64,000 nt of DNA, taken from the NCBI RefSeq assembly GCF_054482525.1, contig NZ_CM137006.1. One strand, given 5' to 3'. The notes under the pieces are model-generated. The model had not been told where the DNA came from. It did no database searches and worked only from the letters and a program-made list of their open reading frames with translations. Each line of letters begins with the position of its first letter. The first letter of the stretch is position 1. The position numbers and the translations under genes were made by a program. Below, in pieces: positions 7,196-7,497 of this stretch.

Positions 7196-7497
7196 AGATA
7201 AGTCACTTCCTTCCAGGTCATTATTTTAACTGGTTTTTATAACCAGTCTCATTTTATTAAGAAGGGTAATAACTTGTGCATCTCTTTTGTCGATCATTGA
7301 TATGGGCAAAGAAATGCAGCTAAAAAGCTTATACGTTATTTATTTAGAATACACTACGACTTTTAGATTACCATCATACACATTAAGAATAATCCACGGT
7401 AATAAGTGATTAGCATCACAGATTTATCGCGTATATATCATTTTTTTGTGACTTATTTATTAAAGGAATAAGAAAGGAAATTTGAATTAAAGACAAA
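7196..7497 (-). promoter_or_regulatory. AT-rich upstream region of the T1SS operon (candidate promoter, possibly H-NS-bound)
   Basis: ~300 bp of strongly AT-rich sequence between ybaT terminator and the TolC-like gene start, contrasting with the GC-rich adhesin gene. No specific -10/-35 assigned. Confidence 0.4.

Follow-up and report, generated by a model that had tools for sequence, protein, structure and literature searches.

The AT-rich stretch at positions 7196–7497 is very probably the multi-input promoter and leader region of the tolC28–siiEA–ABC–HlyD operon, which encodes the T1SS and giant Ig-repeat adhesin of O-island 28 (OI-28). The intergenic gap to which it belongs is a multi-input control region already published for the 99%-identical sequence of Escherichia coli O157:H7. 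Comparison of Escherichia genomes indicates purifying selection on this gap and points to an ancestral locus.

Locus organization and base composition

The window, i.e., the whole 64-kb stretch of DNA that was analysed, is E. coli chromosome, 100% identical to that of strain 19KM1776 and in the orientation opposite to K-12. Open reading frames, RefSeq annotation and Pfam matches place the following features in order along the minus strand:

8828–9760, minus: glsA
7533–8825, minus: ybaT
7196–7532, minus: full intergenic gap from the ybaT stop to the TolC-family start (337 bp, GC 0.326), the probable leader/promoter region
5840–7195, minus: tolC28, TolC-family outer-membrane channel, first gene of the operon (Pfam OEP, E = 1.1e-47)
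1–5737, minus: 5' part of siiEA, giant BapA-related adhesin; the whole coding sequence of about 21.7 kb exits the window at its left end

The RefSeq product name for 5840–7195 is "TolC family outer membrane protein." The first 1,912 residues encoded by siiEA carry a BapA_N domain (2.9e-18) and 11 Big_13 stretches (Pfam); the RefSeq name SiiEA for the E. coli adhesin is taken from the Salmonella SPI-4 system. Past the window edge, RefSeq annotates a T1SS ABC permease/ATPase, an HlyD-family adaptor and cueR next in the 100%-identical genome. The locus therefore contains all the components of a T1SS giant-adhesin operon of the SiiE/BapA class: a TolC-family outer-membrane protein, a substrate with BapA_N and Ig repeats, and the ABC and HlyD adaptor proteins. 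It corresponds to EHEC OI-28 (Z0608–Z0635/ECs0540–0544), with the O157:H7 names Z0608 (tolC28), Z0609/Z0615 (rtx), Z0634 (hlyB28) and Z0635 (hlyD28), equivalent to ECs0540–0544. The adhesin gene is annotated as a single intact coding sequence in the window strain, and is interrupted or a pseudogene in O157:H7. Since tolC28 and the adhesin gene are both on the minus strand, the spacer is located transcriptionally upstream of both. A short distance beyond the left edge of the window, the ATG of cueR and the stop codon of the HlyD-family T1SS gene share nucleotides (ATGA). Where the locus is present, this makes the copper regulator gene cueR the final cistron of the adhesin/T1SS gene string, and cueR may be co-transcribed with the rest.

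Two further features of the window concern gene content. An IS200C-family transposase gene is located between adk and htpG (approximately 23754–24212). The copA–ybaP gap measures 171 bp (12528–12698); in the K-12-type strain RR1, by contrast, copA is followed by ybaQ (HigA-family antitoxin), a difference of the presence/absence kind.

The GC content of 7196–7497 is 0.291, compared with a window mean of 0.525 (z = −4.6). This is the lowest value among all 63,699 overlapping 302-bp segments, the minimum falling within 2 bp of this interval, and the bin 7201–7500 has a GC content of 0.300. The windowed GC calculation thus bears out the original prediction of a strongly AT-rich spacer of about 300 bp preceding the TolC-like gene. 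The sharp contrast with the GC-rich adhesin gene, also predicted, is seen in the siiEA part (GC 0.59) and extends to the coding DNA of tolC28 (0.515) and ybaT (0.534). The window has 35 annotated intergenic gaps that measure 60 bp or more (mean GC 0.437, sd 0.057). Of these, 7196–7532 has the lowest GC; it is the extreme of the intergenic distribution, about 2 sd out, and no wild outlier. Its final 35 bp (7498–7532) are not AT-rich and contain the ybaT terminator hairpin. The A+T content of 7196–7497 is 71%, and TpA occurs at a frequency of 0.11 compared with 0.043 in the window, as composition predicts. Such a low GC has the look of a dense array of promoter and factor-binding sites, and would also make H-NS binding plausible. 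The second most AT-rich 302-bp stretch in the window (40170–40471, GC 0.311) is located inside the acrB–tomB gap (40135–40679).

Regulatory elements and conservation of the leader

Regulation of the operon has been studied in O157:H7, where the tolC28 (Z0608/ECs0540) region is orthologous, with the same chromosomal site and gene order. A plasmid fusion of the region upstream of tolC28 to lacZ is active and responds to RstA and Ca2+ (Niu et al., 2025, PMC12758282). The same upstream region is enriched about 6-fold in RstA ChIP-qPCR, and a short synthetic duplex carrying the RstA box at −294 to −280 is shifted by RstA in EMSA (PMC12758282). A promoter under PhoB control upstream of ecs0540, and PhoB regulation of ecs0540–0544, are credited to Yoshida et al. 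(2010), as cited in PMC3978041 and PMC12846084. Published O157:H7 data also show RpoS dependence in stationary phase (55-fold for Z0608, 20-fold for Z0609), an increase of 3.5–4.1 log2 for ECs0540/0541 as cells in glucose minimal medium enter stationary phase, and good expression of the operon in ordinary stationary-phase LB culture (log2 10.8). The assignment of the spacer as the control region of the T1SS operon is upheld by the lacZ activity and RstA binding of the same region in O157:H7, whose RstA box maps to 7489–7476 in the window. The following elements were recognized in and around the gap:

7499–7521, minus: ybaT intrinsic terminator hairpin GCGCAGTACAGCCTGTACTGCGC, then interrupted T tail CTTTGTCTTT (terminator scan)
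7476–7489, minus: RstA-box homologue, reading TAATTCAAATTTCC (TAATTCAAATTACC in O157:H7), at −294 to −281 from the ATG, one mismatch
7404–7476, minus: Pho-box-like 7-mers in one 11-bp register (CTTTCTT, CTTTAAT, AAGTCAC, ..., CTGTGAT), candidate PhoB sites (motif scan)
7421–7430, minus: H-NS-motif-like GCGATAAATC, 8/10 match to the high-affinity motif TCGATAAATT
7405–7420, minus: CRP-like palindrome TGTGA-tgctaa-TCACT (TGTGAtgctaaTCACT), 9/10 consensus positions, overlapping the last Pho-like repeat
7311–7377, minus: conserved module 1, 85–95% identical between E. coli and two other Escherichia species
7290–7309, minus: variable block of 20 bp between the conserved modules, identity 0.3, unrelated between E. 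coli and E. whittamii/E1V33
7251–7280, minus: candidate sigma-70-like promoter TGCACA-18 bp-TAAAAT in a block 100% conserved in Escherichia, with a predicted start near 7244
7229–7247, minus: short hairpin ACTGGTTATAAAAACCAGT in the putative 5' UTR, a weak feature (fold z = −2.0 in E. coli)
7193–7214, minus: tolC28 ribosome-binding site GGAAGGAAG (7214–7206) and ATG (7195–7193), block 95–100% conserved

The 302-bp stretch 7196–7497 was found in 958 of the 5,426 complete E. coli genomes, with at least 95% identity in each; the rest gave no match. Locus-specific sequence starts near 7505, and the sequence on the other side is common to all E. coli. The arrangement of glsA–ybaT, gap and tolC–siiEA is present also in E. 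whittamii and Escherichia sp. E1V33. The gap is 81–82% identical between E. coli and these two, whereas the 4-fold sites of glsA, ybaT and tolC28 are 63–71% identical, indicating that the gap is under purifying selection. Across the three Escherichia species the conservation is modular: the blocks 7377–7311 and 7289–7196 are conserved at 85–100%, and the distal third is conserved less.

Over 7196–7497 the window shares 99.0% identity with O157:H7 genomes, in which ybaT and the TolC-family gene are likewise the flanks. The three substitutions are at 7478, 7387 and 7251. The first lies in the RstA box, which is equally far from the ATG in both and contains TTTCC in the window and TTACC in O157:H7; this A-to-T change may weaken RstA control in the window strain. 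The 61 bp at 7460–7520 match the window exactly in only 46 of the 958 locus-bearing genomes, so that the window strain carries a minority allele. Between Escherichia species, the RstA-box segment is the least conserved part of the gap.

The RNA fold of the ybaT terminator has an energy of −16.1 kcal/mol (z = −4.25), and none of 200 shuffled sequences was as stable. In other Escherichia the stem is kept and the loop varies. The T tail of the terminator ends adjoining the RstA box. Two of the Pho-like 7-mers are located 10 bp upstream of the conserved −10-like hexamers TATATA (7437–7432) and GATTAT (7394–7389). Scored as two CTGTCAT-like repeats, the top Pho-box 18-mer reaches 10/14, as do 13% of shuffles (p = 0.13, not significant), and the register and its conservation are no more than suggestive of PhoB sites. 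The CRP-like site (consensus TGTGA-N6-TCACA) is one of only three matches with at most one mismatch in 64 kb; E. whittamii and E1V33 have the same half-sites around a different 6-bp spacer (tttcta). Elsewhere in the window, a perfect CRP palindrome, TGTGATCTTTATCACA, occupies 41376–41391 in the hha–maa intergenic gap and is the only exact match.

The BPROM elements reported for O157:H7 (PMC12758282), ATGATG (7377–7372) and GTGTATTCT (7354–7346), map in module 1. With TATTCT as the −10 element, 20 bp separate the two, which makes this a weak promoter prediction. A simple promoter scan of the gap gave two sites compared with 2.3 expected from shuffles, i.e., no excess. The substitution at 7251 replaces the last T of the TGCACA-18-TAAAAT −10 hexamer by C in O157:H7, which argues against this candidate as the main promoter in that strain. 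The hairpin at 7247–7229 was not retained: in E. whittamii and E1V33 only G-U pairs keep the stem together, and the z of the fold is about 0. Small open reading frames of 20–40 amino acids in the gap were likewise rejected, as they start in or span non-conserved sequence. No RfaH ops element (GGCGGTAGnnTG) with up to two mismatches is present on the minus strand of 7196–7532, and an Rfam scan of 5500–10200 at E <= 1 detected no RNA family. An exact 12-mer ops match, GGCGGTAGCGTG, is located inside ushA (15635–15646, minus strand); chance alone would give about 0.1 such matches in the two strands of 64 kb.

In the proposed mechanism, the ybaT terminator at the far end of the gap would insulate the operon from the acid-resistance genes glsA–ybaT, and transcription would start inside the gap in response to several inputs, known from O157:H7, another strain. 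These inputs would be RstA bound at the distal box (7489–7476), PhoB under phosphate starvation, and growth phase together with RpoS. Judging from the sequence, the Pho-box-like run (7476–7404) and the conserved CRP-like site (7420–7405) may be further parts of this array, and the candidate core promoters, 5' UTR and ribosome-binding site would fall within the modules 7377–7311 and 7289–7196. Several of the observations above speak against the promoter/leader reading: the promoter scans show no excess over shuffles, the BPROM spacing is awkward, O157:H7 has a mutation in the best-conserved candidate −10, the Pho-box match lacks significance on shuffles, and the RstA box has a mismatch here and is poorly conserved between species.

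Alternative explanations and the history of the locus

The operon was originally predicted to be horizontally acquired; the comparative data contradict this. A single K-12-type junction is common to 4,459 of the 5,426 complete E. coli genomes: the HlyD-family gene is reduced there to roughly 100 nt from its 3' end, which run into the right arm of the ybaT terminator, and in K-12 the other arm is missing. The HlyD remnant is 92.6% identical to the intact copies and has a 1-nt indel. The same glsA–ybaT site in E. whittamii and E1V33, the common scar with its HlyD remnant in locus-free E. coli and the GC-rich cargo (0.59) together point to an ancestral locus lost by deletion. They indicate that the locus-free state probably arose by one old deletion of about 27 kb rather than by absence of an OI-28 insertion.

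Two alternatives to the promoter/leader reading carry little weight. The stretch could be a passive AT-rich gap, with tolC28–siiEA expressed mostly by read-through from the RpoS/GadX-controlled glsA–ybaT genes across a leaky terminator. The location of all genes on one strand and the interrupted T tail of the terminator agree with this, as does the RpoS dependence of glsA–ybaT (ybaST) itself, published at 19-fold and 70-fold and similar to the 55-fold ratio of Z0608; part of the RpoS effect on the operon could therefore be read-through. As the main source of expression, however, read-through is improbable: the terminator hairpin is strong, the upstream region alone is active and RstA-responsive in the plasmid lacZ fusion (PMC12758282), a promoter controlled by PhoB is reported upstream of ecs0540 (PMC12846084, citing Yoshida et al., 2010), and the nucleotide-level conservation of the gap would be left unexplained. 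The stretch could also stem from island integration, for instance as a remnant attachment site or mobile-element end, given its position exactly at the boundary (near 7505) between the sequence common to all E. coli and the locus-specific sequence. This is extremely improbable, because the annotation contains no integrase or tRNA gene next to the locus, the other boundary falls inside the HlyD-family gene whose stop codon overlaps the cueR start, the locus-free allele is a deletion scar in the 4,459 genomes, and other Escherichia species have the same arrangement.

The model built on the original prediction, in which the spacer is mainly a nucleation site for H-NS (with Hha) that silences a horizontally acquired operon until de-repression sets in, deserves more weight than these two but remains tentative; activators would then counteract the silencing. 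The 71% A+T over 300 bp and the TpA frequency noted above are in its favor. The RstA box is located about 140–240 bp upstream of the candidate core promoters, a geometry typical of counter-silencers. RpoS dependence, as seen for this operon, is common at H-NS-repressed promoters, and there are precedents in the H-NS/Hha repression of the hly T1SS operon and the H-NS silencing of Vibrio RTX loci. The single 8/10 motif match GCGATAAATC (7430–7421) also fits; however, such matches number one in the stretch compared with about 0.4 expected, and 80 in the window (about one per 800 bp), so that this match is at the background rate and there is no enrichment. The AT-rich tract is moreover short and flanked by DNA with GC of 0.51–0.59, and the A+T content expected of a xenogeneic locus is found only in the spacer, the cargo having GC of 0.51–0.59. 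The locus is ancestral in Escherichia, which weakens the rationale for xenogeneic silencing, and the conservation of the spacer is one of sequence, beyond mere composition. Strong expression in stationary-phase LB shows that the operon is not simply silent. Hha, named in the prediction as an antagonist of H-NS, is a co-repressor that acts with H-NS and strengthens its repression; it is TomB that counteracts Hha. Both genes are indeed encoded in the window (tomB 40680–41054, hha 41080–41298), but they are core genes about 33 kb away, and their presence in the window says nothing about the operon. For OI-28, Z0608 or ECs0540, the literature searched contained neither ChIP nor mutant data concerning H-NS or Hha. 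On balance, binding and repression by H-NS at the gap is possible but somewhat doubtful.

A combination of the two mechanisms appears rather unlikely. The RstA/Pho-box cluster, about 140–290 bp upstream of plausible core promoters, would act by disrupting H-NS filaments that nucleate on the leader with its 71% A+T, instead of contacting RNA polymerase, and sigma-S and cAMP-CRP (at 7420–7405) would provide the growth-phase input. With its start codon overlapping the stop of the last T1SS gene, cueR could also be expressed from this leader in the approximately 18% of E. coli that keep the locus.

Related operons and significance

The Salmonella SPI-4 operon siiABCDEF is likewise a T1SS operon for a giant Ig-repeat adhesin behind an AT-rich control region, which is bound by H-NS and activated through HilA/SprB. 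The likeness, drawn at the level of genes rather than DNA, is partial: the E. coli order is outer-membrane protein, adhesin, ABC and MFP, no siiA- or siiB-like genes are annotated beside the locus, and the E. coli adhesin has a BapA_N prefix domain. The E. coli hlyCABD operon, another T1SS operon, is likewise long and preceded by AT-rich DNA; it represents the classic link between Hha and type I secretion and probably prompted the original prediction. It is subject to H-NS–Hha repression and RfaH/ops antitermination, whereas the tolC28 leader lacks ops and has PhoB, RstA and RpoS as its inputs.

The tolC-then-adhesin order with an AT-rich leader occurs in nine other genera, the leaders having GC of 0.25–0.42 compared with 0.44–0.59 for the gene. 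The operons of Enterobacter, Lelliottia, Pseudocitrobacter, Budvicia, Rosenbergiella and Trabulsiella share this layout, but their leaders cannot be aligned with that of Escherichia, the cross-genus comparison giving chance 10–14-mers only. None of the TolC-homologue leaders in the other genera, these six included, has the CRP-like site. The TolC-homologue/adhesin loci of the six also differ in chromosomal context, tblastn having found neither ybaT nor glsA beside them. The Enterobacter and Lelliottia leaders are conserved mutually and have in common TTGACACTTCTTTGAAAATCTTTGTGTCTGA and the inverted repeat AACACCACATTAACATTGTGGGTGT, about 420 bp upstream of the TolC homologue. These leaders are unrelated to that of Escherichia, which implies different regulatory wiring for the same type of operon.

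The basic picture of the control region has already been published and is unchanged by the present additions. New relative to the literature are the conservation map of the leader, the conserved CRP-like site, the minority allele of the window strain in the RstA-box segment, and evidence for "O-island 28" as an ancestral Escherichia locus lost by one old deletion. The operon is needed for early adherence and gut colonization by EHEC O157:H7 (PMC12758282), and its control region therefore decides when the giant adhesin is displayed.
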